DNA of 32,000 nucleotides from Pseudodesulfovibrio mercurii (GCF_000189295.2 NC_016803.1:3420001-3452000); one strand, 5' to 3'. Positions 5,926-32,000 are shown, counted from the first letter of the stretch. Notes: a model not told the origin generated them from the letters alone. Numbers and translations: made by a program.

Positions 5926-5927
5926 GG

Positions 5928-7019: not shown

Positions 7020-7699
7020 TGCATGTTCTCCATGGGGAGGCCGAGGAGCCCCCGGATGCGGGTCTTGACGATGGCTTCGATGGCCTCGATGTGTCCCTCG
7101 TAGGACGCCCAGCCCAGCCGCTTGCAGAGCAGGAACTGGCCTTCGAGGAGCTTGATGACGGTGTTGATGATCAGGTGGCCGGTGATGATCGCGTCGGTCT
7201 CGCCCAGGCAATGGGCGGCGGTCCCCCGGACCAGGGCGGCCAGGGCGTCCAGGTTGGGATTGAAGAAGGCCGCCTCCAGCTTGGGATAGAGCTCGGTGGG
7301 GTGGACCAGCTCGCGGGAGATGATGACCGTGCCCCAGACGTAGTCGGTGGGGCCCAGGAGCCCGTCCATGATGGTGCCCATGAACCAGTCCACGACCTCG
7401 CCCCTGGCCTCGGGGGTGGCGTCGGCGTCGGCCAGCCTGGCCTCGACCTCCTCAAGGGGCGGGAAGATCTGATCGCGGACGATGACGATCTCCCGGATGA
7501 TGGCCTCGTAGAGCCCGGACTTGCCGCCGAAATGGTAGCTCACGGTGGCCAGGTTGACCCCGGCCTCGGCGGCCAGGGTGCGCATGGACACGCCGTTGTA
7601 GCCGTTCTGGGCGAACAGCCGCGCGCCGGTCCGGAGCAGCGTGGCGCGCGTCTCCTCGCCCTGGGCCTGTCTGAGGGACTTGCGTCCTTTGCTGCTCAT
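7016..7699 (-). CDS. TetR/AcrR-family transcriptional regulator
   Basis: The N-terminal HTH reads TRATLLRTGARLFAQNGYNGVSMRTLAAEAGVNLATVSYHFGGK. GGAGG lies 6 nt upstream of the ATG at 7699. The stop overlaps the adaptor start as ATGA (7019-7016), so tetR-mfp-rnd look co-transcribed. Confidence 0.9.
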   Translation of the reverse strand: MSSKGRKSLRQAQGEETRATLLRTGARLFAQNGYNGVSMRTLAAEAGVNLATVSYHFGGKSGLYEAIIREIVIVRDQIFPPLEEVEARLADADATPEARGEVVDWFMGTIMDGLLGPTDYVWGTVIISRELVHPTELYPKLEAAFFNPNLDALAALVRGTAAHCLGETDAIITGHLIINTVIKLLEGQFLLCKRLGWASYEGHIEAIEAIVKTRIRGLLGLPMENMQ

Positions 7700-7926: not shown

Positions 7927-8961
7927 TTACTCGTTGGAGCCCTTGAGCTTGACCCAGTAGTCCTCGTAGGTCTTCATGGCCTCGCCGATGTCGTCCTGGA
8001 ACTCGCCGCGGGAGGCGGTGGTTGCGTCGGGGTAGACGATGGGGTTGTCGCGCACCTCGGCGGGCAGGAACTCGGAGGCCACCTCGTTGGGGGTGGAGTA
8101 GCCCATCTCGGTGGAGATGGCGGCGGCCACGTCCGGGCGCAGCAGGTAGTTCAGGAAGGTGTGCGCCTCATCCAGGTTCTTGGCCCCCTTGGGGATGCAC
8201 AGGGAGTCCATCCACAGGGAGAAGCCCTCCTTGGGGTAGACGTACTTGATCTCGGGGTTCTCCTGGTTGGCCACGTAGGCCTCGCCGTTCCAGATCACGC
8301 CCACGGCGACCTCGCCGGAGAGCAGGGCCTGCTTGGGCGAGTCGGAGTCGAAGACGCGGACGTAGGGCATGAGGCCCTTGAGCTTCTCGTAGGCCTGCTT
8401 GAGGTGGGCGGGGTCGGTGTCGTTCAGGGAGTAGCCCAGGCTCTTCAGGGCGATGGCGAAGACCTCGCGCGGGTCGTTGGGCAGGAGCAGACGGTCCTTC
8501 ATCTCCGGCTTCCAGAGGTCGGCGTAGGAGGTCACGGCGCTCTCGCCCAGGGTGCCGGTGTTCACGGCGATGGCCGTGGAGCCCCACATGTAGGGCACGG
8601 AGAAGGTGTTGTCCGGGTCGAAGGGCTGGTCCGTGAACTTGGCGGAGAGGTTGGGGAAGTTGGTCAGCTTGGACTTGTCCAGCGGCAGGAGCATGTCCTG
8701 GCGGCGCATGAGGCCCACGTAGTCGGACGAGGGCACGATGAGGTCGTAGCCTTCCCCGGCCAGCTTGATCTTGGCGTACATGGCCTCGTTGCTGTCGTAG
8801 GTGGAGATGTGCACCTTGATGCCGGTTTCCCTGGTGAAGTTCTCGACCACCTCGTCCGGGATGTATTCGGACCAGATGTACAGGTACAGCTCCCCGCTGC
8901 CGGCAAGGGCCGGGACCGCGAAGGCGAGGGTCAGGACGATTGCGAGCAGTAGCTTTTTCAT
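7927..8961 (-). CDS. potD: Spermidine/putrescine ABC transporter periplasmic binding protein
   Basis: The start was chosen at the ATG 8961 (MKKLLLAIVLTLAFAVPALA signal peptide). LYLYIWSEYIPDEVVENFTRETGIKV is typical of PotD/PotF. The start overlaps the potC stop as ATGA. The 118-aa upstream extension was rejected. Confidence 0.88.
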   Translation of the reverse strand: MKKLLLAIVLTLAFAVPALAGSGELYLYIWSEYIPDEVVENFTRETGIKVHISTYDSNEAMYAKIKLAGEGYDLIVPSSDYVGLMRRQDMLLPLDKSKLTNFPNLSAKFTDQPFDPDNTFSVPYMWGSTAIAVNTGTLGESAVTSYADLWKPEMKDRLLLPNDPREVFAIALKSLGYSLNDTDPAHLKQAYEKLKGLMPYVRVFDSDSPKQALLSGEVAVGVIWNGEAYVANQENPEIKYVYPKEGFSLWMDSLCIPKGAKNLDEAHTFLNYLLRPDVAAAISTEMGYSTPNEVASEFLPAEVRDNPIVYPDATTASRGEFQDDIGEAMKTYEDYWVKLKGSNE

Positions 8962-9725
8962 GACTTCTCCTTGAGCAGCCGCCGCGACAGGAGGACGGCG
9001 GCCACGGTTATAATGATCATCACCACGCTGAGCGCGTTGACGTCCGGCTTTATGCCGAGACGGACCATGGAATATATCCGCAGGGGCAGGACCTCGTAGG
9101 TCGGCCCCGTGGTGAAGAAGGAGACGATGACGTCGTCCAGCGACAGGGTGAAGCTCAGGAGCCACCCGGCGATGAGGCCGGGCGCGGCCATGGGCAGGAC
9201 GATGCGCCGGAAGACCTGGTACTCGGCGGCCCCGAGGTCGCGGGCGGCCTCGACCACGGTGGGGTCGAACCCCTTGAACCGGGCGTAGACCGTGGCCGTG
9301 ACGAACGGCACGCACAGGGTCACGTGGCCCATGAGCAGGGTCCAGAAGCCGAGCGACAGGCCGATGCCGAGGAAGAGGACCAGCAGGGAGATGCCGATGA
9401 CGATGTCCGGCGACATCATCATGACGAAGACCCCGGCGAAGACCGCGCGGCGGCCCTTGAAGCGGTACTGGTGGAGCATGAAGGCGGCCAGGGTGCCGAT
9501 GACGCAGGAGACCGTGGACGAGACCACGGCGATGGTCACGGAGCGCAGGGCCGCGTCAATCAGGGTGGTGCCCTGGATCAGCTCGCCGTACCAGCGCAGG
9601 GTGAACCCCTTCCAGGCCAGGGAGTACTTGGAGGCGTTGAAGGAGTAGACCGCGATGACGACCAGCGGCAGGTAGAGAAAGACGTAGACCAGGGCCGCGT
9701 AGACCCGCTTGACCCATATGTTCAT
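8958..9725 (-). CDS. potC: Spermidine/putrescine ABC transporter permease
   Basis: A 255-aa polytopic protein with the EAA loop EAARDLGAAEYQVFRRIVLPM. It overlaps the potB stop as ATGA (9725-9722). Confidence 0.88.
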   Translation of the reverse strand: MNIWVKRVYAALVYVFLYLPLVVIAVYSFNASKYSLAWKGFTLRWYGELIQGTTLIDAALRSVTIAVVSSTVSCVIGTLAAFMLHQYRFKGRRAVFAGVFVMMMSPDIVIGISLLVLFLGIGLSLGFWTLLMGHVTLCVPFVTATVYARFKGFDPTVVEAARDLGAAEYQVFRRIVLPMAAPGLIAGWLLSFTLSLDDVIVSFFTTGPTYEVLPLRIYSMVRLGIKPDVNALSVVMIIITVAAVLLSRRLLKEKS

Positions 9726-10562
9726 ATGCGCACCTTCCTTCCGGCCCGGCGCACGCTCTTGTAGTACAGGGCGAGCATCAGCCCCATGATGACGGTCATG
9801 GCGATGGAGGCCGCGGCCCCGAGCGGGATGTTGCGGGCCGCCAGGAACTGGTCGCGGATGTAGTTGCCGAGCAGCATGGTCCGCGCTCCGCCCAGGATGT
9901 CCGGGATGTAGAACATGCCCAGCGCGGGCAGGAAGACGAGCATGCAGCCCGAGACGATGCCGGGCATGGTCAGGGGCACGGTGATCTTGCGGAAGGTCGA
10001 GAAGCGGCTGGCCCCGAGATCGCGCGAGGCCTCCAGGAGCTTCAGGTCCAGCTTCTCGATGGCCGCGTAGAGCGGCAGGATCATGAACGGCAGCAGGGTG
10101 TAGACCAGGCCGATGAAGACCGCCGTGGGCGTGTACATGAGCTTGAGCGGCGCGTCGATGACCCCGAGGAAGAGCAGGAACTTGTTGACCACGCCGTCGG
10201 CCTTGAGCACGGCCACCAGGGCGTAGGTGCGGATGAGCGTGTTGGTCCAGAAGGGGATCATGACCAGCAGGAGCAGGGTCTTGGTGTACTTTTTGCCCGC
10301 CCGGGCCACGATGTAGGCGAAGGGGTAGCCGATGGCCAGGCAGAGCAGGGTGGCTGTGGCGGCCATGACCATGGACTCGGCCAGCATGGACCCCAGGGCG
10401 GGCTGGAGCAGCTCGCGGTAGCTGGCGAAGGACAGGACCGGCTCGATGAGGTCGTCCGGGTGGCGCTTGAGGAAGCTGACCGCCAGGAGCATGAGGGTGG
10501 GCACGGCCCCGAACAGGACCATCCAGCCGAGCACGCCGGTGACGACCAGCCGCTTGAACAGG

Positions 10563-10573
<11 letters not shown>
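9722..10573 (-). CDS. potB: Spermidine/putrescine ABC transporter permease
   Basis: A 283-aa polytopic protein with the EAA loop EASRDLGASRFSTFRKITVPL. It overlaps the potA 3' end by 11 nt. Confidence 0.88.
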
Positions 10574-11681
<1,108 letters not shown>

Positions 11682-12883: not shown

Positions 12884-13528
12884 TCAGCCGTTGAACCCGA
12901 GCGGGACGGGCCTGAGGTTGTCGGGAGGGATCGCGGACGGGAGGGACGCGCCGTGGCGGCGCAGTCCGGCCACGGAGCGGTAGGGTTCCCCGCCGCAGAG
13001 ATAGGCGCGCAGCCGGTGCCTGGTCTCGTCGTCCATGAAGGCCATGAGGGGCTGGTGGACGTCGGCCACGCGGGACAGGGCGTCCCGGATGAGCCCGTCC
13101 CAGGCCGCGTGGTACCGTTCCAGGTCGTCGGGGTGCAGGGCCTTGCGGCAGCGGGTGCAGCCGCAGTCGAGGGGGATGTCCCGGCCCAGGTCGAACAGGC
13201 CGTATTCCTCGCTGATCTCCTGCCCCTTCCAGATGTCCCGCACCGCGATCTCGAAGCCGTAGGCCGTGGCCATGACGTTGGCGTCGCAGCGGTGATTGAC
13301 GTAGCGCGCGTTGTCGCGGCTGACGACGTGCACGCCGGACTCGTCGGCGTAGACGGTCTTGCCGAGGTCGCGGACCCGGTCGGGCCGGTTGGCCGCGCGG
13401 GCGGCGTAGGCCGCCTCAAGCGGGTCGCGGACGTAGACGATGGTGCCCCGCGGGATGTCCCCGGCGGCGATCACGCCGTACCCGATGGTCGGATCGACGA
13501 AGCGCACTTCGGTCATGGGATGCATCAT
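12884..13528 (-). CDS. SET-domain protein (putative protein-lysine methyltransferase) with a post-SET-like Cys cluster
   Basis: The GxG-type N-SET motif is GYGVIAAGDIPRGTIVY. The core is RYVNHRCDAN (compare the canonical NHSCxPN). The Tyr motif is GQEISEEYG, followed by DCGCTRCR (CxCxxC). Candidate starts are GTG 13537 and ATG 13528, 13525 and 13516; ATG 13528 was chosen because of the GGGAG upstream. Confidence 0.8.
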   Translation of the reverse strand: MMHPMTEVRFVDPTIGYGVIAAGDIPRGTIVYVRDPLEAAYAARAANRPDRVRDLGKTVYADESGVHVVSRDNARYVNHRCDANVMATAYGFEIAVRDIWKGQEISEEYGLFDLGRDIPLDCGCTRCRKALHPDDLERYHAAWDGLIRDALSRVADVHQPLMAFMDDETRHRLRAYLCGGEPYRSVAGLRRHGASLPSAIPPDNLRPVPLGFNG

Positions 13529-13582
13529 GGGAATCACCGCTCCCGCCGGGGCGGGAGCACGCTCGAGGTCGTCGGAACCGGA

Positions 13583-15354: not shown

Positions 15355-16755
<1,401 letters not shown>

Positions 16756-16826
16756 GCGGATAGTGTCTCCAGCCACCTTGTACTTCGATGCCGCCCCCGA
16801 GACAATTCAAAAGTGCGCCTGCGGCG

Positions 16827-16887
16827 CCCGGGGGAAGGGGGAGAGGGAAACCCTTGAAAAGGGTTTCCCTCTCCCCCTTCCCCCGGG
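16827..16887. repeat. 61-nt perfect hairpin-forming inverted repeat (29-bp arms, 3-nt loop)
   Basis: The polypurine-rich arm cccgggggaagggggagagggaaaccctt (16827-16855) pairs exactly with the polypyrimidine-rich arm aagggtttccctctcccccttcccccggg (16859-16887). Confidence 0.9.
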
Positions 16888-16911
16888 ACCCCCCATCCCC
16901 CTCACCCTCCC
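16867..16911 (-). other. G-quadruplex-prone tract on the minus strand (C-rich, i-motif-prone on the plus strand)
   Basis: The plus strand has seven C-runs of 3-6 nt: 16867-69, 73-77, 80-84, 89-94, 97-901, 905-07 and 909-11. They are separated by loops of 1-4 nt, so the minus (sense) strand upstream of the activator gene fits G3+N1-7 repeated. The tract overlaps the right arm of the 29-bp hairpin. Confidence 0.6.
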
Positions 16912-16948
16912 AAACTTTTTATCGCCGCTACGCGGGGAGGCAACACAG

Positions 16949-16982
16949 AAAAAGGCCCCTGACCAATTCCAAGTCAGGAGCC
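16949..16982 (-). terminator. Intrinsic terminator candidate for the alpha-glucan operon
   Basis: On the minus strand, GGCTCCTGAC-ttggaattg-GTCAGGGGCC forms a 10-bp stem with 1 mismatch, followed by TTTTT (complement of 16949-16953). It lies about 210 nt downstream of the stop at 17195. Confidence 0.6.
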
Positions 16983-17091
16983 CCTCTTTCTCTTCAATCT
17001 TTGGAGCGATTCGGGCGGCGCAGCCACCCGACAGCGGCTCTCTCCCCGCGCTCGCACTAGGCTTGCGAGAGTGGTGCAGCTGTGCATTTTC

Positions 17092-17147
17092 TTCCGGGAG
17101 CTTTCACCGCAGCGTAGCCGTCTACGTGAGGATGAAAGCCCCCGGAA
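17092..17147. repeat. Nested imperfect hairpin in the long 3' region of the glucan operon
   Basis: ttccgggagctttca (17092-17106) pairs with tgaaagcccccggaa (17133-17147) at 14 of 15 positions. The 26-nt loop contains its own stem, cgtag-ccgt-ctacg. No U-run follows on either strand. Confidence 0.6.
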
Positions 17148-17194
17148 AAAATGTGCAGGTGCGCCGCTATCGGAAGCCGCTCTCCGTCTCCCTC

Positions 17195-20100
17195 CTAGCT
17201 CCACCTTATCAATCTGGGGTCGCACTTGCTTGCCAACCCCGGATGCGTCGGGAGGACGCGGACGCCGTAGCGCACGAGCCCGGACTCGGCCGGGCTGTAG
17301 GTGGCCCGGTAGAGCAGGGTGGAGCCCTCGGTGTGCTTGAGCTGCATGGGGATGCAGTCCACCACGGTCTCCTCGTCCGGGGTGGCGGCCACGAATTCGA
17401 CCACGATCTCCTCGGTCAGCAGCTGGCCCCGGTCCACCTTGGCCGAGACCGTCAGCCGGTTGCCCAGGCGGAAGACGTCGCCGCTGATGCCCTCCACCTT
17501 GACCTCCTTGATGTTCACGGTGGCGAAGCGGCCGGGGATGCGCGTGCGCCATTCGCCCAGGCCCAGGGCCAGTTCGTTGTTGTTCTTGGCGCGCAGCTTG
17601 GACAGCTCTATGGCGGGCAGGTACATGTCGTCGATGTAGTCCCGGACCATGCGGTGGGTGCCATACTGGCGGAAGGCGGTCTGCATGGACGCCTTCATGC
17701 GTTGCAGCCAGGCGTGGGGCACGCCGTCGCCGCCCCGGTCGTAGAACTCGGGGACCACCTCGGATTCCAGGGTGGCGTACAGGTTGTCCGCGTCCACGAT
17801 GTCCTGGTTGACCTGGCTCTGGTAGACCAGGCCGCTGCCCACGGCCCAGCCGTTGGTACCGTCGAAGGCCTCGTCCCACCAGCCGTCCAGGATGGAGCAG
17901 TTGGGCACGCCGTTGACCGCGGCCTTCATGCCGCTGGTGCCGCTGGCCTCCATGAGCCGGGTGGGGTTGTTCAGCCAGACGTCCGCGCCGGACACGAGCA
18001 GCCGCGCCAGGCGGATGTCGTAGCTCTCCAGGAAGATGACCCGGCCCAGGAAGTCGTCCTGCTTGGCCAGCCGGCAGATGAGGTTGATGTAGCTCGCGCC
18101 CATGGTGTCGGCCGGGTGGGCCTTGCCCGCGAAGATGATGTTCACCGGGCGATCGGCCTTGGTCAGGATCTCCTTGATCCGCTGGAGGTTGTGGAAGATC
18201 AGGGTGGGCCGCTTGTAGGCCGTGCAACGCCGCGCGAAGCACAGGGTCAGGTGGTCCGGGTTGAGCTCGTTCAGGAAGGCGTGCAGCCGGTTGGGCGGTT
18301 CGCCCTCGCGGGTCCACTGGGCGGCGATGGAGCGGCGCACCTCGTCATAGAGGCGGTGCTTGAGGGCCACGTGGGTGTCCCACAGCCGCCGGTCGTCCAG
18401 GCCGTCCAGGCAGCCCCAGTCGGTCTTTTCCAGGAGCTGGCGGTGTACGGACATGCTGCACGACTCCTCGATGTCGTGGCGGACGCGCTCGTCCAGCCAG
18501 GAGGTGATGTGCACGCCGTTGGTCACGTGGCCCACCGGGACCTCGCTCAGGATGAAGCCGCGCCACAGATCCTGCCACATGCGCCGGGACACGTCGCCGT
18601 GCAGGCGGGAGACGCCGTTGCGCTTGCAGGAGAGCTGCAGGGCCAGCACGGTCATGTTCAGGTGGTCGGCCTCCTCGGCGTAGATGTGCCCGAGGTTCCA
18701 CAGCCCGTCCCAGGGCACGCCCATCTCGTCGGCGTAGCCCCGGAAGTAGTTCTCCACCAGGGACTTCTCGAACCGTTCGTTGCCCGCGGGCACGGGGGTG
18801 TGCATGGTGAACACGGTGTTGCCCCGGACGATCTCCTTGGCCGTGGGGAAGTCCACCCCGTCCAGGAGCATGAGCTGGCGGATGCGCTCGAAGAGCAGGA
18901 AGGCGGAGTGGCCCTCGTTGAGGTGGTAGACCGACGGGACGATGTCCAGGGCGGTGAACAGCCGGATGCCGCCCACGCCGAGGATGATCTCCTGCTCGAT
19001 GCGGCCCTTGGAGGTCGGGTCGTAGAGCTTGGAGGTGATGTCCCGGTCCGAGCGGGAGTTCTCGACCACGTCCGTGTCGAGCAGGTAGAGCCTGGCCCGG
19101 CCCACGTGGACCTCCCATATCTGGGCGTACACGGTGCGGCCCGGCAGGTCCACGGTGATCATGACCTTTTCGTCGTTCCGCTGGAGCGGGGTGATGGGCA
19201 TGGTGGCGAAGTTGTTCTCGTGGTACTCGACCACCTGGTCCCCGTTGCCGTTGATGCGCTGGTGGAAGAAGCCGTTCTTGTACAGCAGGGAGATGCCGAT
19301 GAACGGCAGGTTCAGGTCGCTGGCCGACTTGATGTGGTCGCCGGAGAGCAGGCCCAGGCCGCCGGAGTAGACCGGGATGGCCTCGTGCAGGCCGAACTCC
19401 ATGGAGAAGTAGGCCACCGGGTTCTTCCAGGTGATGCCCCTGACGTCGGCCTTGGCGCTCTCGGCCATGTAGGCGTCGAACCGCTCCAGAACCGAGTTCA
19501 GGCGGCCGATGAATTCCGGGTCGTCGGCCAGTTCGGCCAGCCGGTCGCGGCGCATGGTGTCCAGGAACAGGACCGGGTTGTGGCCGCTCTCGTGCCATTT
19601 GTCCGCGTCCATCCATTCGAACAGCTCCTGGGAGTCGCGGTGCCAGACCCACCAGAGATTTTCGGCCACGTCGCGCAGCCGGGCCAGGGGCGCGGGCAGC
19701 TCGGTGACCACGGTGAAGGACCGCAGCCTCGGCTGGGTCGTGTTCACGCCCGAGAAGCTGATCTCCGCGCCGGGCGCGGCGACCATGCGCTGCACGCCCG
19801 CGATGCGTTCGGTGCGGATGTCGGCCGCGTACTCGTAGGCCTCCAGGTAGCGGGGATAGAAGTGGGCCCAGGTGGCCTCCTCGGCGATCTTGCGGGCCTC
19901 CTTGCTGCGAGAGACGCGCTCCTCGGGCGTCCAGCGGGTGAAGTCCGAGAGGTAGAGGGCCAGGTTCTCGCGCGCGGTCTCGTAGTCGTCCTCCAGCCGG
20001 TTGAGGACGTGCACGCCGGGGTGTCCCTGGGGGTGCCGCTCCATGATCCACTGGCCGAAGCCGGCCCGGTCCGAGGTCACCGTGGGCACGGCGAAGGCCG

Positions 20101-21433
20101 CGCTCTCCATGGGGGTGTAGCCCCACGGTTCGTAGAAGGACGGGAACACGGTCAGATCCATGCCCGCCAGGGCGTCGTAGTATTCCAGGTTGAGCACGCC
20201 GTCGTTGCCGTCCAGGTAGACCGGGATGAAGATGACGCAGCAGCGGTTCACGGCCTCGTTGTCCAGCTTGCGCTCGCGGCACTTCATGACCACGGGGTCG
20301 TGGTCCGCGTCGCCCAGGTGGTGGGTGGAGATGCCCGCGTACTTCTCGATGTCGTAGCGCTCCTGCTTGAGGCGGCGCCGGGCCTCGTCGCTGAAGCCCG
20401 CGTAGCCGCAGGAGACGAGCAGGAAGGCGACCACGGTGACGTCCTTGCCGGACTTGGCCAGCTCCTCGTTCAGGTCGCCCAGCCCGTCCAGGAGCAGGTC
20501 GATGCCCTTGTTGTGGAATTCGTAGCGTCCGGAGGTCGCCACCAGCAGGGTCTTGGCCGGGTCCAGGTCCCGTTCGAGGAAGTTGGCGGCCAGGTCCAGG
20601 AGCTGCTTGCGCGAACGTTTGCGGGTCTGGGCCACGGCCGTGGGGTCGGCGAACCCATCGAGGTTGAAGCCGTTGACCGTGACCACGGCCGGGTTGGTGC
20701 CGAGAAGGTTGGAGGCCTCGCGCCGGGTGATGTTGGAGACCGTGGTGAAGCAGTCCGCCTCGCGGGCCGAGACCGACTCCATGGAGTGCTTGGCCGTGAC
20801 CCCGTAGGCCTTGGCCTCCTGGGACGGCTCGATCTCTTCGAGCCGCTTGTAGATGTCCACGCCCGCCCCGGACATGGCCCGGCCGAGCATGGTGGCGTGG
20901 GTGGTCAGGACCGTGGACACCGAGGGCGCGTGCTTCTTCAGGTGGAGCACGCCCGCCCCGGACATCCACTCGTGGAAGTGGGCGTAGACGTCGGCCCCTT
21001 CGCCCACGTCCTCGCTGATTTCCTTGATGGCCATGGCCGCGGCCGTGGAGAACAGGACCGGTTCGATGTAGTCCCAGCCTCCGGCCATGGAATCCACGCC
21101 ATAGTCGTTCCACAGCTGGAACAGGAGCTTGTCGTGGGCCGGGAAGGCGTTGCGGAAGCCGATGAGCAGGACCAGCGGCTTGCCCGGGATGTCCCACTGG
21201 CCGGTGGCGGTCTCGATGCCCCAGGCCTTGAGCCGTTCCAGGGCCGGGCGGACCGTGTCGGGCGGATCGGAGGGCAGGAACCCGGGGTTGCGGTCGAGCA
21301 GCGGACCCACGGCCACGTAACGGTTGTCGAAGGCCGCCTTGGCCTGCGGGGCCTTGCTGCTTATGACGGTGTAGATGCCGCCGACCTTGTTGCACACTTC
21401 CCAGGAAACTTCGAACAGCCAGCTTTTATCCAT
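17195..21433 (-). CDS. Fusion protein: N-terminal GT3 (eukaryote-type) glycogen synthase plus C-terminal GT35 alpha-glucan phosphorylase (DUF3417-type)
   Basis: The ORF is a single uninterrupted 1412 aa. The N-terminus has LFEVSWEVCNKVGGIYTVISSKA and FPSFYEPWGYTPMES (an E-X7-E-type motif). From about aa 570 there is LPAPLARLRDVAENLWWVWH, then VAYFSMEFGLHEAIPVYSGGLGLLSGDHIKSASD, then the PLP-Lys motif EASGTSGMKAAVNG. AGGAG overlaps the GH57 stop 12 nt upstream of the ATG. Confidence 0.85.
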   Translation of the reverse strand: MDKSWLFEVSWEVCNKVGGIYTVISSKAPQAKAAFDNRYVAVGPLLDRNPGFLPSDPPDTVRPALERLKAWGIETATGQWDIPGKPLVLLIGFRNAFPAHDKLLFQLWNDYGVDSMAGGWDYIEPVLFSTAAAMAIKEISEDVGEGADVYAHFHEWMSGAGVLHLKKHAPSVSTVLTTHATMLGRAMSGAGVDIYKRLEEIEPSQEAKAYGVTAKHSMESVSAREADCFTTVSNITRREASNLLGTNPAVVTVNGFNLDGFADPTAVAQTRKRSRKQLLDLAANFLERDLDPAKTLLVATSGRYEFHNKGIDLLLDGLGDLNEELAKSGKDVTVVAFLLVSCGYAGFSDEARRRLKQERYDIEKYAGISTHHLGDADHDPVVMKCRERKLDNEAVNRCCVIFIPVYLDGNDGVLNLEYYDALAGMDLTVFPSFYEPWGYTPMESAAFAVPTVTSDRAGFGQWIMERHPQGHPGVHVLNRLEDDYETARENLALYLSDFTRWTPEERVSRSKEARKIAEEATWAHFYPRYLEAYEYAADIRTERIAGVQRMVAAPGAEISFSGVNTTQPRLRSFTVVTELPAPLARLRDVAENLWWVWHRDSQELFEWMDADKWHESGHNPVLFLDTMRRDRLAELADDPEFIGRLNSVLERFDAYMAESAKADVRGITWKNPVAYFSMEFGLHEAIPVYSGGLGLLSGDHIKSASDLNLPFIGISLLYKNGFFHQRINGNGDQVVEYHENNFATMPITPLQRNDEKVMITVDLPGRTVYAQIWEVHVGRARLYLLDTDVVENSRSDRDITSKLYDPTSKGRIEQEIILGVGGIRLFTALDIVPSVYHLNEGHSAFLLFERIRQLMLLDGVDFPTAKEIVRGNTVFTMHTPVPAGNERFEKSLVENYFRGYADEMGVPWDGLWNLGHIYAEEADHLNMTVLALQLSCKRNGVSRLHGDVSRRMWQDLWRGFILSEVPVGHVTNGVHITSWLDERVRHDIEESCSMSVHRQLLEKTDWGCLDGLDDRRLWDTHVALKHRLYDEVRRSIAAQWTREGEPPNRLHAFLNELNPDHLTLCFARRCTAYKRPTLIFHNLQRIKEILTKADRPVNIIFAGKAHPADTMGASYINLICRLAKQDDFLGRVIFLESYDIRLARLLVSGADVWLNNPTRLMEASGTSGMKAAVNGVPNCSILDGWWDEAFDGTNGWAVGSGLVYQSQVNQDIVDADNLYATLESEVVPEFYDRGGDGVPHAWLQRMKASMQTAFRQYGTHRMVRDYIDDMYLPAIELSKLRAKNNNELALGLGEWRTRIPGRFATVNIKEVKVEGISGDVFRLGNRLTVSAKVDRGQLLTEEIVVEFVAATPDEETVVDCIPMQLKHTEGSTLLYRATYSPAESGLVRYGVRVLPTHPGLASKCDPRLIRWS

Positions 21434-21445
21434 GGCTTTTTTCTC

Positions 21446-22648
21446 CTACCCCTGCCGCCTGTCCGAACCGTCCAGCCGGAGGGCGAGGTCGTTGAGCACG
21501 TTCATGTAGGTAATGAACGCCTGATGCGGGGTGTCGTACGGGTTGAAGTACTTGTGCACGTCGCCGTCGGAAAACCACTTGGTGCACATGTAGTAGAAAT
21601 GGTCGCTGGTCAGCAGCTCCCGCCAGGTGGCGATGATGTCCTCGTCCCCTGAATCCAGAACCTTGTCTTCCAGGGCGTAGGCCAGTTCGGCGGCCTGGTC
21701 CTGCATGGGGTTGCCCAGCCAGGCGGTCACGTCGCGTTCCAGGTCGGCCCAGGAGGTGAAGTAGGGCACGTCGAGCTGGGCCATGGGGTCCAGGTGCGCG
21801 GCGGCCTCGCCCGGGGTCTCGAAGACGAAGTCGTCCCGGGACAGGATCGCCTCGGGCAGCTTGCGGAAGAACTCGAAGATGCCGGTGTCGGCCCACTGGT
21901 GCTCGCCGATGGTCTCGTAGTCCATGAACAGGTTGATGATCTCGCCGCTGCCCGCCACCTTGTGGACCCAGTCCGCGTATTTTTCCACGGTCACGGGCCA
22001 CTCGCTCCACCCCCGGTCCGAGAAGCGGAAGGCCACGTCGTCGGACAGACGGTAGTTCTTGAGCAGGGCCTTGAGCTTGGAGCAGCCCGCGGGCTGGTAC
22101 ACGAAGTTGGGCGAGCGCCAGCCCAGGACCTGGTCCGCGCCCTCGGCCAGGACGGCCCGGTAGCCCATCTTCTCGATCTCCTGGGCCAGGTCGTTGCTGT
22201 AGATCAGCTCGGTGTTGCGGAAGGTCACGGGTTTGGTCCCGAAGAACTCCTCCAGGATGCGGCTGTGCATCTTGACCTGGCGGCGGAACTCCTCCTTGGA
22301 GAAGAGGAAGGCCAGGGAGTGGTAGTGGGTCTCGCCGATGAACTCCACGCAGCCGGTATCGGCCAGGGCCCGGAAGGTTTCCAGGACCTCGGGGCAGAAC
22401 TCCTGGAACTGCTCCATGGCCACGCCGGTGATGGCGTAGGAGATGCGGAACCTGCCCTGGTGTTGCTCGATGAGGTCGAGCATCATCCGGTTGGCGGGCA
22501 GGTAGCACTTTTCGGCCACCTTGCGCATGATGTCGCGGTTGGCGGCCTCGTCGCGGTAGTGGTGGCTGCGGCCCATCTGGAAGAAGGAATAGCTCTTGTC
22601 CAGCCGCATGGGCTGGTGGACCTGGAAGTAGAAGCAGACGGAAATCAT
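21446..22648 (-). CDS. Glycoside hydrolase family 57 protein (alpha-amylase-type)
   Basis: The start was chosen at the ATG 22648 (MISVCFYFQVHQPMRL, which carries the HQP region). Other motifs are GCVEFIGETHYH, FRNTELIY (candidate nucleophile Glu), MDYETIGEHQW (candidate acid/base Asp) and LTSDHFYYM. The start overlaps the upstream stop as ATGA. Confidence 0.8.
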   Translation of the reverse strand: MISVCFYFQVHQPMRLDKSYSFFQMGRSHHYRDEAANRDIMRKVAEKCYLPANRMMLDLIEQHQGRFRISYAITGVAMEQFQEFCPEVLETFRALADTGCVEFIGETHYHSLAFLFSKEEFRRQVKMHSRILEEFFGTKPVTFRNTELIYSNDLAQEIEKMGYRAVLAEGADQVLGWRSPNFVYQPAGCSKLKALLKNYRLSDDVAFRFSDRGWSEWPVTVEKYADWVHKVAGSGEIINLFMDYETIGEHQWADTGIFEFFRKLPEAILSRDDFVFETPGEAAAHLDPMAQLDVPYFTSWADLERDVTAWLGNPMQDQAAELAYALEDKVLDSGDEDIIATWRELLTSDHFYYMCTKWFSDGDVHKYFNPYDTPHQAFITYMNVLNDLALRLDGSDRRQG

Positions 22649-23931
22649 GCGCGCCCTCCGGTAAGTTGCCGGTACACGTCGAGAACCTTTTCGGCGGCCC
22701 GGTCCCATTGGATCTTCTTGAGGGTTTCCCGGCCCTGTTCAACCAGGGTCCTGGCCCGCTTCTCGTCGGTCAGGATGTCCTCGATCTCGAAGGCCAGCCG
22801 GTCCACGTCCCAGAAGTCCACCTTGACCGCGTGCTCCAGGACCTCGGCCACGCCGGACTGCTTGGAGACGATGCACGGCACGTCGAAGACCATGGCCTCC
22901 AGCGGGGTGATGCCGAAGGGCTCGGACACGCTGGGCATGACGTACAGGTCGCTCATGGCGTAGATGCGCTCCACGTCGGTGCCCTGCACGAAGCCGGTGA
23001 AGTGGAAGCGGTCGGCCAGGCGGAGTTCGGCCATGCGTTCGACCATGCGCGGGAACATGTCGCCGGTCCCGGCCATGGCGAAGCGCACGTCGTTGTGGTT
23101 CTCGAGGACCTTGGCCGCCGCCTCGACGAAGTAGTCGGGCCCCTTCTGGAAGGTGATCCGGCCCAGGAACAGGACCAGCTTCTCCTTGAACGGCTTCTTC
23201 ACGCGCAGTTGCCCCAGCCGCCGTTCCTTGGTCACGGCGTTGTGGACCACGGTGATCTTGTCCGGGTCGATGGAGTAGCGGTTGACGATGGTCTCCTTGG
23301 TGTAGTGGCTGACCGCGATGATCCGGTCGGCCGCCTCGAACCCGGCCCGCTCGATGTCGTAGACCTTCTGGTTGACGTGTTCGCCCGAGCGGTCGAACTC
23401 GAGCGCGTGGGCGTGGACCACCAGGGGCTTGCCCGAGACCCTTTTCGCCTCGATGCCCGCCGGGGCGGTCAGCCAGTCGTGGGCGTGGATGACGTCGAAC
23501 TTCTCGGTCAGGCCGAGGTGCGCGCCGATGAGGCTGTAGCGCACGATCTCGGCCATGAGGTCCTTGCCGTACCCGCCCTTGAAGTCGTTCTTGAGCTCCC
23601 CGAAGATGTCCTCGGTGGTGATCAGCTCGTTCCTTTCGAGCAGGGAATGGTATTCCCGTTCGGTCAGGTACGGTCGCAGGGGCGAGAGGACCTCGAGCAC
23701 GGACAGCCGTTCCTGGAGCTTGCGGATCTCGGTCACGCCGACCTTGGTGCGCAGCCGGTTGGCCCCGAGCAGGGTCAGGTGGCCGCCCTCCTCGTCGGAG
23801 TCCAGCCGGGGCAGGACGAACAGGATGTCGGTGCCGAGATGGGCCAGCCCCTTGGTCAGGCCCAGGCATGCCGTGCCCAGGCCGCCGGAGATGAATGGCG
23901 GGAATTCCCACCCGAACATGAGTACGCGCAT
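22645..23931 (-). CDS. Glycosyltransferase, GT4/GT5-like (putative alpha-glucan/glycogen synthase-type)
   Basis: The N-terminus is MRVLMFGWEFPPFISGGLGTACLGLTKGLAHLG. The C-terminal motif is SEPFGITPLEAMVFDVPCIVSKQSGVAEVL (GT-B E-X7-E). I cannot separate GT4 from archaeal-type GT5 by eye. Confidence 0.75.
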   Translation of the reverse strand: MRVLMFGWEFPPFISGGLGTACLGLTKGLAHLGTDILFVLPRLDSDEEGGHLTLLGANRLRTKVGVTEIRKLQERLSVLEVLSPLRPYLTEREYHSLLERNELITTEDIFGELKNDFKGGYGKDLMAEIVRYSLIGAHLGLTEKFDVIHAHDWLTAPAGIEAKRVSGKPLVVHAHALEFDRSGEHVNQKVYDIERAGFEAADRIIAVSHYTKETIVNRYSIDPDKITVVHNAVTKERRLGQLRVKKPFKEKLVLFLGRITFQKGPDYFVEAAAKVLENHNDVRFAMAGTGDMFPRMVERMAELRLADRFHFTGFVQGTDVERIYAMSDLYVMPSVSEPFGITPLEAMVFDVPCIVSKQSGVAEVLEHAVKVDFWDVDRLAFEIEDILTDEKRARTLVEQGRETLKKIQWDRAAEKVLDVYRQLTGGRA

Positions 23932-23935
23932 GGGG

Positions 23936-25894
23936 CTACTTCTCCTTGAGGAGCTTGTTCAGGCGGATGGCCTCGGCCATGGACCACGCCTGGGCCACGG
24001 CGCCCTTGGGCGCGTGCGGCGGGTTGCCCGTGTACAGCTCCGGCACCGCGCTGATGCAGAAGTCGTCGGGAAATTCTCGCAGGATCGGCTTGAAGTACTT
24101 GCGCAGGAAGGCCTTGGTTCCGGCGCGGTCCTCGGCCTGGCGCAGCAGGGCCTGGCCGAAATGTCCGGCCAGCCAGGGCCAGACCATGCCCTGGTGGTAG
24201 GCCGAGTCGCGGGAGTCGGCGTCGCCCTTGTAGAAGGGCGAGTAGGCCGGGTCCCGGGGCGAGAGGGTGCGCAGGCCATAGGGGGTCAGCAGGTGGGCCT
24301 GAACCACGCCGATGACCGCGCGCATGTGGTGGAAGTCGAGCATGGTGTGCGGCAGGGACAGGGCGAAGATCTGGTTGGGCCGGATGCGCCGGTCCTGGCC
24401 GTGCTCGTTCACCACGTCGCACAGGCAGTTGTCGCGGTCGTTCCAGAAGCGGGTCGTGAAGTGGGCGCGCAGCCGGTCGGCGGCCTCGCGGGCGCGCCCG
24501 GCCAGGACATCGTCCTCGGTCTCGGCCAGCTCCAGGAAGCAGCCCAGGGCGTTGTACCACAGGGCGTTGATCTCCACGGCCGCCCCGTGGCGCGGGGTGA
24601 CCGGGCGGCCGTAGGCCTGGGCGTCCATCCAGGTCAGCTGGGTGTGCTCGTTGCCCGCCCAGAGCAGCCCGTCCGGGTCCAGTCCGCACAGGGGCACGCG
24701 CCCGTCCAGGTGGGCGGCCACGATGTCGCGCAAGGCCGGATAGACCTTGTCCATGATGAATTTCTTCGAGCCGCGCGTCTTGAGGTATTCCTGCACGGCC
24801 CAGAAGAACCACAGGGAGGCGTCCACCGAGTTGTAGGCCAGGTGGTCGGAGTTCTGGTCCAGGTAGTTGGGCAGGAGCCCGTCGCGGGTCAGCCCGGCGT
24901 AGGCGGCCAGGACCTCCTCGCCGAAGGCCCTGCGGCCGGCGTGGAAGGTCAGCCCGGGCAGACTGATCATGGTGTCCCGCCCCCACTCGCCGAACCAGTG
25001 ATAGCCCGCGATGACCGAGGCGAAACCCGAGCCGTTGCGGATTAGGAACTGCCCGGAGAAGTACTTGAGCCACTGCTCGGGCTTGCTGCGGTCCTTGCAG
25101 GCCGCGAACTCGGCCTCGCGCCGGGCGATCTCCTTCCTGCGCTGGTGCTCCAGGTTGCCGAGCGGCTCCACCGAGGCGGCGAAGATCACGGGCTTGCCCT
25201 TTTCCAGGACGGTCTCGAACATGCCGGGGCAGAACAGGTCCTCCTGGTAGTCGAAGCCGCGCGTGCGCTCCATGAGGTATTCGATGTTGTAGACCCACTT
25301 GGGGCCGGGGAAGAACTCCGAGGTCCGGTTGGTGCCCATGTACAGGGGCGGCATGCCCTCGTAGGGCTGGATCTTGCGGCCGTTCCGCTCGGGGTAGGAC
25401 TTGGGCCGCAGGAACATGTTCTCGCGGGTCAGGGTGTGGATGTCCCGGTAGGCCAGCAGGGGGCGCAGCCGCAGGGCGGGCTTGACGTTGCCCTCAAGCA
25501 GTTCATAGCAGACCAGCACGGTGTTCTTGCCGTGGATCATGAGGAAGGACTTGCGGATCAGGGCGTCGCCGATGCGGTAGGTCGTGGCCGGGTAGAGGCC
25601 CTGGTCGAAGGAGTCCACGAACTGGTGGCCGGTGGGGTGGTACACGCCGGGGTACTTGTTGGAGGAGAGCAGGAACTCCCGGTCGTTGGCCAGGACCGAG
25701 GTCTCCAGTTTGGAAAGCAGGACGAAGCGCCCCTTGGGCTCCGTCAGGGCCGCGACCAGCAGGCCGTGGTACTTGCGCGTGTGGCAGTTGATGATGGTGC
25801 TGGACGAGTACCCGCCGAGACCGTTGACGTCGATCCATTCCTTCCTGGTCGCCGTCTCGGTGTTGACGCACTCGTCTCTGGAAATGTGCAGCAT
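23936..25894 (-). CDS. Glycogen debranching enzyme / amylo-alpha-1,6-glucosidase family (GDE_C-type)
   Basis: The start was chosen at the ATG 25894 (MLHISRDECVN...). The sequence includes EWIDVNGLGGYSSSTIINCHTRKYHGLLVAAL, GYHWFGEWGRDTMISLPGL and AYHQGMVWPWLAGHF. The stop lies 4 nt before the GT4 start. Confidence 0.8.
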   Translation of the reverse strand: MLHISRDECVNTETATRKEWIDVNGLGGYSSSTIINCHTRKYHGLLVAALTEPKGRFVLLSKLETSVLANDREFLLSSNKYPGVYHPTGHQFVDSFDQGLYPATTYRIGDALIRKSFLMIHGKNTVLVCYELLEGNVKPALRLRPLLAYRDIHTLTRENMFLRPKSYPERNGRKIQPYEGMPPLYMGTNRTSEFFPGPKWVYNIEYLMERTRGFDYQEDLFCPGMFETVLEKGKPVIFAASVEPLGNLEHQRRKEIARREAEFAACKDRSKPEQWLKYFSGQFLIRNGSGFASVIAGYHWFGEWGRDTMISLPGLTFHAGRRAFGEEVLAAYAGLTRDGLLPNYLDQNSDHLAYNSVDASLWFFWAVQEYLKTRGSKKFIMDKVYPALRDIVAAHLDGRVPLCGLDPDGLLWAGNEHTQLTWMDAQAYGRPVTPRHGAAVEINALWYNALGCFLELAETEDDVLAGRAREAADRLRAHFTTRFWNDRDNCLCDVVNEHGQDRRIRPNQIFALSLPHTMLDFHHMRAVIGVVQAHLLTPYGLRTLSPRDPAYSPFYKGDADSRDSAYHQGMVWPWLAGHFGQALLRQAEDRAGTKAFLRKYFKPILREFPDDFCISAVPELYTGNPPHAPKGAVAQAWSMAEAIRLNKLLKEK

Positions 25895-26099
25895 GATGTC
25901 CACCTGTGGAAAAGAGGTTGTGAAGATGTGAGCTGCCCCTGGAAGGGGTATTTCCGATGATTCAAGTTGATAGCAAAACCCCGCCAGTTGCAAGGGAAAA
26001 ATGTCTCCATAACGGAATATTCGCCAAACGGTACGGAATGACGTGTGGAGGCGGGAGCCGGTCGTCCGGAATGGCCGCCGGACGGGCGGCGGAACGCGT

Positions 26100-29315
<3,216 letters not shown>

Positions 29316-29423
29316 AGGGTTACCGCCGATATCGGAAAAGCGGGAAAACACGAGACGCATTGGGTCTGCACATTGTTATGGCATTCTCCGCACAGGTCAA
29401 ATGATAATCCGATTCCGGCCGAC

Positions 29424-29495: not shown

Positions 29496-32000
29496 CTAGT
29501 CCGTGGAGGGGTGGCTCCCGGCCCGGCCGAAGAGGCGGTTCAACCGCTGCTGGGCCGCGTCCAGGTACATGTAGTAGACCGGGGTGAAGTACAGGGTCAG
29601 GAGCTGGGAGACCAGCAGGCCGCCGACCACGGCCAGTCCCAGCGGACGCCGGGCCTCGGCCCCCGCGCCCAGGCCGAGCGCGATGGGCAGGGTGCCCATG
29701 AGCGCGGCCATGGTGGTCATCATGATCGGCCGGAAGCGGATGAGCGCGCCCTCGCGGATGGCCTCGGCCGCGCCATGGCCGTGCCCGCGCTGGGCCTCCA
29801 CCGCGAAGTCGATCATCATGATGGCGTTCTTCTTGACGATGCCGATGAGCATGATGATGCCCACGAACCCGTAGATGTTCAGGTCCTGGCCGAAGACCAT
29901 GAGGGTCAGGAGCGCGCCCACGCCCGCCGACGGCAGGCCGGACAGGATGGTCAGCGGGTGGACGAAGGACTCGTAGAGCACGCCCAGCACCATGTAGATG
30001 ACCAGGATGGCCATGACCAGCAGGACCCACAGGCCGCGCATGGAGTCCTGGAAGGCCTGGGCCTCGCCCTGGAAGCTGGTGGAGACCGAGGCCGGGACCA
30101 CCTCGGCGGCCAGCTTCGAGACCGCGTCCACGGCCGAGCCCAGGGACTCTCCCGGCGGCAGGTTGAAGGAGATGGTCGCGGACGGCAGCTGGCCCGAGTG
30201 GTTGACGGACAGCGGGCCCACGCCCAGGCCCCACTTGGCCAGGGTTTCGAGGCGCACGAGCTTGCCGTTGGCGGAGCGCACCGAGAGCATGGCCAGGGCG
30301 TCCGGGTTGGACTGGTACTGCGGGCCCAGCTCCATGATGACGTCGTAGGTGTCGGTGGGCGCGTAGATGGACGAGACCTTGCGGTTGCCGAAGGAGGTCG
30401 AGAGGGCGTCCTCGATCTGGTAGGCCGAGATGCCGAGCGCCGAGGCCTTGTCGCGGTCGATGTCGATGGCCAGCTCGGGGTTGTCGAACTCCATGTCCGA
30501 GGACACGTCCTGGATGCCGGGCAGCTCCTGCATGCGCTTTTCCATGTCCGCTGCGGCCTGGAACAGGACCTCGGTGTCGGGGCTCTGCAGGGTGTACTGG
30601 TACTGGCCCTTGGAACTGCGCCCGCCGATGCGGATGGCCGGGGGATTGGACACGAAGGCCCGGATGCCCGGCACCTGCGAGAGCTTGGCCCGCAGCCGCT
30701 GCTGGACCCCCTCGATGGGGCCGCGTTCGCTGCGCGGCTTGAGATCGACCATGAGGCGGCCGGAGTTGCCGCCCCGGTTGGGGCCGCCCCCGCCGACCAC
30801 GGACATGTAGTTCTGCACGGCCGGGTCGTTGGCCACGATCCGCATGAGCTGCTGCTGGCGCTCCTTCATGATGTCGAAGGCCACGCCCTGTTCGGCCTCG
30901 GTGGAGACCATCAGGCGGCCCGCATCCTCGGTGGGCAGGAAGCCCTTGGGGATGGCCCGGAACAGGACCACGGTAAGAATCAGGACCAGGATGGAGGCGA
31001 GCATGGTCAGCCGGTGGTGGCGCAGGGTCCAGTCCAGGGTGCGGGCGTAGAACCGGCGCAGCCCCTCGAAGCCCCGCTCGAACAGGTTGAACAGTTTGCC
31101 GTGATGCGTCTCCCCGTTGTGCGGCTTGATGATCAGGCTGCACAGCATGGGGGTCAGGGTCAGGGAGACCAGCCCGGAGATGAGGATGGAGGCGCAGATG
31201 GTCACGGCGAACTCGTGGAACAGGCGGCCCACGATGCCGCCCATGAAGAGCACGGGCAGGAACACGGCGGCCAGGGAGATGGTCATGGACACGATGGTGA
31301 AGGCGATCTCCTTCGAACCGTCCATGACCGCCTCCAGGGTGGACTTGCCCATCTCCCCGTGGCGGACGATGTTTTCGAGCATGACGATGGCGTCGTCCAC
31401 CACGAAGCCCACGGACAGGGTCAGGGCCATGAGCGATATGTTGTTCAGGCTGAACCCGTAGAGGTACATGACCGAGAAGGTGCCGATGACCGACATGGGC
31501 AGGGCCAGGCTCGGGATGATGGTGGCCGACAGTCTGCGCAGGAAGAGAAAGATGACCAGGATGACCAGGCCCACGGTGAGCAGCAGGGTGAACTGCACGT
31601 CCCCGATGGACTCCTTGATGGACTCGGAGCGGTCGTAGAGCACGTTCAGGTTGATGGCGGCGGGCAACTGGGACTGGAAGGAGGGCAGCAGGGCGCGCAC
31701 GGCCTTGACCACCTCCACGGTGTTGGTGCCGGGCTGGCGCTGGATGGCCAGGACCATGCCGGGCTGGCCGTTGTACCAGTTGCGCCGTCTGGTCTGCTCC
31801 ACGGAGTCGAACACGTCGGCCACGTCGGACAGGCGCACGGGCGCGCCCTTGCGCCAGGCCACCACCAGGGGCTTGTAGTCCTCGGCGTTCATGAGCTTGC
31901 CGCTGGAGCGGACGATGTACTCGCGCACGGGGCCGGCCACGGTGCCCACGGGCAGGTTGACGTTGCCCTTGCGCACGGCCTCGGCCACCTCGTCCACGCC
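29496..32000 (-). CDS. RND efflux transporter permease, C-terminal ~833 aa (5' end outside the window)
   Basis: The ORF is open to the window edge. The sequence is AcrB-like (VGFVVDDAIVMLENIVRH, GIVKKNAIMMIDFAVEAQR). Stop TAG is at 29498-29496. Confidence 0.92.
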   Translation of the reverse strand, partial: GVDEVAEAVRKGNVNLPVGTVAGPVREYIVRSSGKLMNAEDYKPLVVAWRKGAPVRLSDVADVFDSVEQTRRRNWYNGQPGMVLAIQRQPGTNTVEVVKAVRALLPSFQSQLPAAINLNVLYDRSESIKESIGDVQFTLLLTVGLVILVIFLFLRRLSATIIPSLALPMSVIGTFSVMYLYGFSLNNISLMALTLSVGFVVDDAIVMLENIVRHGEMGKSTLEAVMDGSKEIAFTIVSMTISLAAVFLPVLFMGGIVGRLFHEFAVTICASILISGLVSLTLTPMLCSLIIKPHNGETHHGKLFNLFERGFEGLRRFYARTLDWTLRHHRLTMLASILVLILTVVLFRAIPKGFLPTEDAGRLMVSTEAEQGVAFDIMKERQQQLMRIVANDPAVQNYMSVVGGGGPNRGGNSGRLMVDLKPRSERGPIEGVQQRLRAKLSQVPGIRAFVSNPPAIRIGGRSSKGQYQYTLQSPDTEVLFQAAADMEKRMQELPGIQDVSSDMEFDNPELAIDIDRDKASALGISAYQIEDALSTSFGNRKVSSIYAPTDTYDVIMELGPQYQSNPDALAMLSVRSANGKLVRLETLAKWGLGVGPLSVNHSGQLPSATISFNLPPGESLGSAVDAVSKLAAEVVPASVSTSFQGEAQAFQDSMRGLWVLLVMAILVIYMVLGVLYESFVHPLTILSGLPSAGVGALLTLMVFGQDLNIYGFVGIIMLIGIVKKNAIMMIDFAVEAQRGHGHGAAEAIREGALIRFRPIMMTTMAALMGTLPIALGLGAGAEARRPLGLAVVGGLLVSQLLTLYFTPVYYMYLDAAQQRLNRLFGRAGSHPSTD

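Follow-up and report, generated by a model that had tools for sequence, protein, structure and literature searches.

A glycogen synthase fused to an alpha-glucan phosphorylase in Pseudodesulfovibrio mercurii, probably a bifunctional enzyme of a conserved gene cluster

Why would a bacterium join, on a single polypeptide, an enzyme that lengthens a glucan and one that takes it apart? The question is raised by a gene at 17195..21433 on the minus strand of a 32,000-nt stretch of the Pseudodesulfovibrio mercurii genome (GCF_000189295.2 NC_016803.1:3420001-3452000; hereafter the window, with positions counted from its first letter), whose product of 1412 amino acids (aa) carries a GT3 glycogen synthase followed in frame by a GT35 alpha-glucan phosphorylase (GT3::GT35). 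Textbook bacterial glycogen metabolism relies on GlgC, GlgA, GlgB, GlgP and GlgX; the present gene is instead part of a compact set composed of GH133, GT4, GH57 and GT3::GT35, which we find conserved among sulfate reducers, syntrophs and planctomycetes and in many gut Bacteroidales. We propose that the protein is probably a truly bifunctional enzyme, an orthologue of KEGG K16153, with its synthase flexibly tethered to a glycogen-binding phosphorylase scaffold. The fusion architecture is already known, both as K16153 and as a product name used by JGI; what we add is that the GH133-GT4-GH57-GT3::GT35 cluster is conserved across phyla, that both active sites are equally constrained, that the linker is flexible yet constrained in length, and that the protein can be linked to the newly solved scaffold of the Segatella copri phosphorylase ScGP.

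A fusion of opposing enzymes invites the suspicion that it is no fusion at all. The gene is a single intact open reading frame (ORF) from its ATG to a TAG stop codon at 17195-17197, and its translation and domain matches bear out an earlier note on this DNA, made from the sequence alone, which had described one 1412-aa ORF uniting two enzymes of opposing alpha-1,4-glucan steps. Its length by itself is weak evidence, because the DNA is of 67% G+C (64-71% over nearly the whole window) and a shadow ORF of 1725 aa also runs antisense to it (16475-21652, plus strand), without coding composition and typical of high-GC DNA. The fusion frame has G+C contents of 0.64, 0.42 and 0.96 at the first, second and third codon positions, a pattern shared with those window genes that have family matches, and together with the Pfam and NCBIfam matches and full-length homologues at 43-93% identity this identifies 17195..21433 as a real gene. 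An exact-sequence lookup of the 1412-aa protein returned no record.

Could two adjoining genes nonetheless have been merged through a missed stop or a frameshift, in sequencing or assembly? Such neighbours do exist. Our genome scan took one genome per species and found relatives in at least 598 of them, and we describe the best 80 of these loci, all spanning the whole protein. In 76 of the 80, the match lies within one ORF of 1380 aa or more that no stop interrupts; of the remaining four, one ends at a contig edge and three, from Muribaculaceae or other Bacteroidales, hold two adjoining ORFs on the same strand (L062, 9932-14191; L075, 9501-13808; L078, 9926-14290). These split pairs encode the same GT3 and phosphorylase proteins, with order and orientation as in the fusion and 3-60 nt between the two genes; they differ from the fusion in yielding two polypeptides, and in all three the GH133-GT4-GH57 trio is missing from the surrounding 10 kb. 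The existence of natural split pairs means that the two enzymes are partners whether fused or not. As for the P. mercurii gene, the junction DNA (19660-19860), in which a break near 19.7-19.8 kb would, by the earlier note, have refuted the fusion, contains zero stops and zero homopolymer runs, and its linker codons are normal in coding composition. The best 120 database homologues are likewise full-length and, since the same uninterrupted ORF recurs in 76 of 80 independent loci from several phyla, a frameshift or assembly artefact is excluded for practical purposes. We reject it, and would grant it next to no probability.

What, then, are the two halves? Profile searches with PF05693, DUF3417, PF00343 and TIGR02094 support a GT3 synthase and a phosphorylase alike, and the motifs that the earlier note had picked out (FEVSWEVCNKVGGIYTV, YEPWGYTPMES and SGTSGMK) are all present in the translation. 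The synthase module occupies aa 1-545 (19799..21433, minus strand, as are all features of the gene and its cluster). Pfam Glycogen_syn PF05693 matches it over aa 8-350 and a second stretch, with 322.6 bits (E = 7e-96) where 27 would suffice, whilst the bacterial GlgA (GT5) model TIGR02095 stops at 31.5 bits, far short of its cut-off of 328.45. The only PDB sequence matches of this half are eukaryotic glycogen synthases: human GYS1 (E = 9e-78), yeast Gsy2p and Caenorhabditis elegans GYS-1. Its fold says the same, as judged from an AlphaFold2 model of aa 1-1200 built on an alignment of 93 sequences, which Foldseek superposes on the yeast, human and C. elegans enzymes with target-normalised template modelling (TM) scores of 0.71-0.81 (E ~1e-42 to 1e-44). 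The N-terminal ~545 aa are therefore, as had been recognised from motifs, a GT3 synthase of the animal and fungal type and not a GlgA/GT5 enzyme, with a predicted UDP-glucose:glycogen 4-alpha-glucosyltransferase activity (UDP, uridine diphosphate).

The likeness to eukaryotic synthases extends to the donor and catalytic motifs KVGGI, HEW, GRYEFxNKG and E-X7-E. In the alignment to GYS1, window residues 3-351 correspond to GYS1 26-379 and residues 364-534 to GYS1 439-610; the donor diphosphate-binding pair R303/K309 falls on GYS1 R331/K337, and E435/E443 of the E-X7-E motif on E510/E518. With HEW at 154-156, this is the active site of a retaining GT-B enzyme, and its E-X7-E motif and Arg/Lys pair are at least 99% conserved among 169 fusions; E435 itself (codon 20129..20131), the first glutamate of YEPWGYTPME, is glutamate in 168 of 169. 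The differences lie elsewhere. The gap between the two GYS1 blocks implies that the GYS1 380-438 insert is shorter here by ~47 residues, and the fusion has no phosphorylated N- or C-terminal tails, the synthase C-terminus continuing straight into the linker. The arginines through which glucose-6-phosphate and phosphorylation control the eukaryotic enzyme (GYS1 R579, R580, R582, R586, R588 and R591) align with P503, E504, R506, S510, E512 and K515, so that five of the six are missing, only R506 is kept and a lysine stands in place of R591; nor are these columns conserved within the fusion family. The eukaryotic regulatory cluster is thus largely absent, and the protein does not have the features of a eukaryotic-style regulated synthase.

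The second half, residues ~578-1412, is a complete 'clade 2' GT35 phosphorylase of the TIGR02094/DUF3417 type; the earlier note had likewise seen a complete DUF3417-type phosphorylase here. It opens with the alpha-helical DUF3417 domain (aa 579-685; 19379..19699; PF11897, 117.7 bits) and continues with the catalytic core (aa 673-1273; 17615..19417), which matches TIGR02094 over model positions 1-600 with 772.1 bits against a cut-off of 191.7; Pfam Phosphorylase PF00343 also matches. The equivalog model for the Thermococcales maltodextrin phosphorylase, NF041129, scores 722.9 bits, well below its cut-off of 1500. Among solved structures one relative stands apart: the C-terminal 846 aa align end to end with ScGP (PDB 9L6I; E = 9e-179; ~37% identical in the Foldseek alignment), and classical phosphorylases follow at merely ~1e-15. 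The AlphaFold2 model superposes on ScGP with a target-normalised TM score of 0.70, in spite of ending at aa 1200. A C-terminal segment (17198..17566) without a Pfam match aligns with ScGP residues ~720-850, a domain that PMC12912991 describes.

ScGP is therefore the reference against which this half has to be read. As described in PNAS in 2026 (PMC12912991), such a 'clade 2' enzyme begins with an N-terminal loop, followed by a helical domain, the phosphorylase core and, at the C-terminus, a beta domain; ScGP assembles through its helical domain into an asymmetric pentamer, which wraps around glycogen particles, and adenosine monophosphate (AMP) stacks pentamers into an inhibited decamer. Its key residues are H316, R507, R508, K513 and Lys609, seen by cryo-electron microscopy to carry pyridoxal phosphate (PLP), and R583 at a distal AMP site (PMC12912991). 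The first five align with H878, R1068, R1069, K1074 and K1170 of the fusion and are invariant in 169 of 169 fusions, K1170 (codon 17924..17926) being the PLP lysine of the motif EASGTSGMK, the very role that SGTSGMK had been given beforehand. R583 aligns with R1144, a position held by arginine in 115 of the 169 and by lysine in 42 (157 in all). The two proteins thus share the DUF3417 helical domain, the catalytic H/RR/K set and PLP lysine, the distal AMP-site arginine and the C-terminal beta domain. ScGP, however, is a stand-alone protein of 852 aa with a free N-terminal loop, whereas the loop of the fusion runs on from a linker and a 545-aa synthase.

Are both of these active sites in use? 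The fusion of opposing activities would risk a futile cycle, and one half might instead be a pseudo-enzyme, a glycogen-binding or regulatory domain in the service of the other; indeed, one of the five chains of the ScGP pentamer lacks PLP (PMC12912991), so that not every copy need be active. A non-catalytic role for one half had also been among the three roles suggested at the outset. The alignment of full-length fusions (n = 169: 76 ORFs from genomes and 92 proteins from databases besides the window protein, down to ~35% identity) speaks against it. In the synthase, H154, E155, W156, H179, T181, R303, K309, E435 and E443 are 98-100% conserved, and in the phosphorylase G691, G692, G694, D699, K702, E840, H842, H878, R1068, R1069, Y1073, K1074, E1162, T1166 and K1170 are 100% conserved. 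The few deviations are isolated replacements, spread over sequences that do not group together as a clade. Moreover, the halves evolve at an equal rate: the median identity to the window protein is 45% in the synthase half and 46% in the phosphorylase core, and the two are correlated at r = 0.99. Both halves appear to be under equal purifying selection at their active sites, which argues against a non-catalytic role for either; we reject a degenerate half as highly improbable, and favour a protein with two working enzymes.

How these enzymes are held together can be judged from the same AlphaFold2 model. Its mean predicted local distance difference test score (pLDDT) is 87.5, with ~90 for each module, and only two segments fall below 50: residues 344-360, at the site of the missing eukaryotic insert, and the inter-module linker at aa 553-574 (~22 residues; 19712..19777), where pLDDT drops to 30-39 from ~90 on either side. 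The latter coincides with the linker that had been estimated by eye at aa 545-570. The predicted TM score (pTM) of the model is low, at 0.57, as would be expected of two bodies that each fold with confidence but have no fixed orientation to one another. Although its sequence varies, the linker is constrained in length: in 168 relatives, the counterparts of A536 and P580 have 39-47 residues between them.

The fusion is by no means a curiosity of one genome. A protein search recovered 6232 relatives at E <= 1e-10; the best 120 of them, which we describe here, are 1279-1429 aa long, cover 91-100% of the query at 43-93% identity, and come from Pseudodesulfovibrio, Desulfovibrio, Acidobacteria, Fibrobacterota, Spirochaetota, Bacteroidia, Syntrophales and Candidatus Raymondbacteria. 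Among the matches listed, the closest named relatives are Pseudodesulfovibrio species (76-81% identity), and a metagenome protein from JGI is 93% identical over 100% of the query. The best 80 genome loci add Planctomycetota and Bdellovibrionales to Desulfovibrionaceae and Syntrophales, along with many Bacteroidales families and genera (Alistipes, Rikenellaceae, Muribaculaceae, Prevotellaceae, Dysgonomonas, Paludibacter and Tenuifilaceae). Within the Desulfovibrionaceae, we observe two divergent versions of the protein, one ~80% identical to that of the window (L001, Pseudodesulfovibrio-like) and one ~41% identical (L004, L006, L007 and L009, from Desulfovibrio sp. isolates and metagenome-assembled genomes). 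The window protein is nearer to a planctomycete locus (L002, 50%) and to an Acidobacteria protein (P0041, 51%) than to this second Desulfovibrio group, and the closer similarity hints at horizontal transfer of the cluster.

CAZy lists modular proteins of the GT3+GT35 type. KEGG, for its part, has an orthologue for them, K16153, which is quoted in PMC8307300 as 'glycogen phosphorylase/synthase [EC 2.4.1.1 2.4.1.11]'. The P. mercurii protein belongs there both by its architecture, with GT3 and GT35 on one polypeptide and a length within the ~1405-1429 aa of that group, and by the name of its 93%-identical homologue at JGI, 'phosphorylase/glycogen(starch) synthase'; we see no architectural difference. 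The earlier note, in recalling such fusions from Bacteroidetes and doubting that this one was unique, was right and yet understated the case, considering that they span several phyla and have a KEGG orthologue of their own. NCBI and UniRef, on the other hand, call these proteins of ~1410 aa only 'alpha-glucan family phosphorylase' or 'DUF3417 domain-containing'. K16153 itself is a bioinformatic label: our literature search found no experimental paper behind it, only papers that list it. Nor did that search find a study characterising the GT3/GT35 fusion, whose logic had been called uncharacterised from the start, although the slash wording 'phosphorylase/synthase' could escape a phrase search. 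Similarly, the fusion is not described in the passages searched of a 2024 Chemical Reviews article on prokaryotic alpha-glucan enzymes (PMC11046441). The architecture is genuine and biochemically unexplored, yet common and already listed, and the window protein is an ordinary orthologue.

The genes around the fusion say more about its purpose. In 5' to 3' order the cluster runs GH133, GT4, GH57 and, last, GT3::GT35. Its first gene (23936..25993) encodes an 'archaeal-type' glycogen debranching enzyme, or amylo-alpha-1,6-glucosidase, of 685 aa with GDE_N and GDE_C domains (TIGR01561, 440 bits against 364). A GT4-type glycosyltransferase of 428 aa follows (22645..23931; Glycos_transf_1 and Glyco_transf_4), and then, directly upstream of the fusion, a GH57 family protein of 420 aa (21446..22708; PF03065, 250 bits), whose ORF overlaps the GT4 gene by 64 nt, so that its true start may lie further downstream. 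Only 12 nt separate the GH57 stop from the fusion ATG, and a Shine-Dalgarno-like AGGAG (21443..21447), 9 nt 5' of the ATG, overlaps the TAG stop of GH57, which suggests translational coupling. Some 210 nt past the fusion stop, a terminator-like hairpin with a 12-bp stem, a 7-nt loop and a U-run (16949..16983; -25.9 kcal/mol, z = -4.3) probably marks the end of the operon. Inside the cluster, a consensus scan of the coding strand picked up no site resembling a terminator, though the same scan also missed this hairpin on account of its 7-nt loop, and gave fewer matches than shuffled sequence; a sigma-70 promoter scan of 16600-26400 found none.

This arrangement recurs well beyond Pseudodesulfovibrio. 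In the best 80 loci, GH57 stands beside the fusion in 55, GT4 in 49 and GH133 in 47; all three genes occur together in 45, preceding the fusion in 37 of these and following it in eight (Alistipes or Rikenellaceae), and this full trio spans Desulfobacterota, Planctomycetota and Bacteroidota. Eleven more loci hold part of the trio, ten of them with a short flank, and every one of the 151 trio genes shares its strand with the fusion. A cluster of the same three families is also known from the archaeon Picrophilus torridus, where the role of GT4 is called unclear in PMC11046441; the passages searched do not make the link seen in the bacterial trio, which is coupled on the same strand with GT3::GT35.

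Two of the trio members leave room for a different product. The GT4 protein falls below every NCBIfam cut-off (the best, glgA_Coryne, at 143 bits against 302), and its closest solved relative is GlgM, the mycobacterial maltose-1-phosphate synthase (6TVP, E = 2e-24); we regard it as a candidate chain initiator or second synthase. The GH57 protein, which may be a branching enzyme or an amylase, has neither a PDB match by sequence nor an NCBIfam model match. Perhaps, then, the cluster makes or remodels some other alpha-glucan or oligosaccharide, for instance via maltose-1-phosphate from the GlgM-like GT4, with a GH57 that may hydrolyse rather than branch. We consider this very unlikely: the match to GlgM is weak, in a protein under every family cut-off, the cluster has no GlgE gene, GT3, GT35 and GH133 are all classical glycogen enzymes, and storage of polyglucose is known in Desulfovibrio (PMC4287179), an observation for which a later paper cites Stams (1983).

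Glycogen thus remains the preferred product, and the cluster would be a self-contained pathway for the intracellular polyglucose that Desulfovibrio stores. The GT3 half would lengthen non-reducing chain ends from a nucleoside diphosphate (NDP)-glucose, probably UDP-glucose, and the GT35 half would take glucose off the same ends as glucose-1-phosphate; GH57 would probably branch the chains, GT35 and GH133 would degrade them, and GT4 might serve as initiator or second synthase. UDP-glucose as the donor would fit the UDP-glucose-dependent glycogen synthesis that Lou et al. are said to have described in Prevotella bryantii in 1997. We envisage neither a channel nor a rigid complex: the fusion would tether one synthase to each phosphorylase module, and the latter would hold the synthase at the glycogen surface, as a scaffold of the ScGP kind, oligomeric, glycogen-gripping and regulated by AMP. 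The levels of metabolites, namely inorganic phosphate versus glucose-1-phosphate, NDP-glucose and AMP, would decide between net synthesis and breakdown, in place of the eukaryotic phosphorylation and glucose-6-phosphate control, for which the sequence elements are largely missing.

Where the chains begin is a separate matter, and one that offers another reason for the fusion. Eukaryotic GT3 synthases need a primer made by glycogenin (PMC11046441); no glycogenin partner is encoded near the fusion gene, and the Pfam and NCBIfam matches of the cluster genes include no GT8 glycogenin. The phosphorylase might replace it, making or lengthening malto-oligosaccharide primers from glucose-1-phosphate for the GT3 half, and a hand-over between two sites is something that a fusion would favour. 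ScGP does run the reverse, synthetic reaction in vitro, but with a kcat described as much smaller than those of other phosphorylases (PMC12912991). Furthermore, phosphorylases are themselves primer-dependent, the GT4 of the cluster is an equally good or better candidate initiator, and the co-conserved GH133 debrancher points to a phosphorylase that degrades. Primer supply is therefore an unlikely purpose for the fusion, and we return to the tethering of two opposed enzymes on one scaffold.

One could take the ScGP analogy further and imagine a 'turnover machine', in which a pentameric phosphorylase ring, as in ScGP, grips glycogen whilst five tethered GT3 synthases work on the same ends, and AMP-driven stacking of rings stops the degradation of large particles; with GH133, GT4 and GH57, this would make a pathway independent of both glycogenin and GlgC/GlgA. 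The idea is tentative and, on balance, doubtful. If true, a single polypeptide would do what takes eukaryotes a set of kinase cascades, namely regulate synthesis and breakdown reciprocally, within a glycogen pathway that is unrecognised and widespread in anaerobic bacteria.

Several points weigh against the bifunctional, tethered enzyme that we favour. Our literature search found no measured enzyme activity for any member of the fusion family, and the choice between UDP-glucose and ADP-glucose (ADP, adenosine diphosphate) as donor is not readable from the sequence. The oligomeric state is extrapolated from a protein ~37% identical, an assembly that AlphaFold did not reproduce in the hands of the ScGP authors (PMC12912991), and the extra 62-kDa N-terminal module could prevent a pentamer. 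The narrow range of linker lengths hints at a geometry more defined than that of a simple tether; weak contacts between the modules may exist too, as flexibility was judged indirectly, from pTM and linker pLDDT on aa 1-1200. Finally, nine loci with at least 5.5 kb on each side lack the trio, all three split loci among them, and the fusion therefore also works outside the cluster.

The implications for annotation hold regardless. Under the NCBI name 'alpha-glucan family phosphorylase', name-based reconstructions of pathways would overlook the only glycogen synthase that such genomes have. Among sulfate reducers, Desulfovibrio is known to draw on polyglucose as its endogenous reserve, and in this one protein two questions can be put to the test: how a GT3 enzyme starts a chain without glycogenin, and how futile cycling is avoided. 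With the first structure of a stand-alone phosphorylase relative in 2026, such work is timely.

The remainder of the window holds a few features of note. The 418-nt gap between the fusion gene and the next gene downstream contains, beyond the probable terminator, a perfect 29-bp G+C-rich hairpin (16827-16887, minus strand), and the 96-nt stretch around it folds at -80.5 kcal/mol (z = -7.8); a terminator, a repeat element and a regulatory structure are all conceivable. That next gene encodes a sigma-54-dependent response regulator (15355-16776, minus strand), and upstream of the cluster lies a hybrid sensor kinase with SBP_bac_3, PAS, HisKA, HATPase and receiver domains (26100-29360, minus strand). 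We considered the two as regulators of the cluster and make no claim, each being syntenic in only one of the 80 loci. Further away, a gene for a 217-aa SET-domain protein (12884-13537, minus strand; PF00856, E = 8e-9) sits between those for a membrane acyltransferase and a GNAT acetyltransferase. Transport genes on the minus strand at 7927-11681, 2815-7211 and 29496-31997 make up a complete potABCD spermidine/putrescine ABC operon and two RND efflux systems, one of which is accompanied by a TetR regulator gene (7016-7699).

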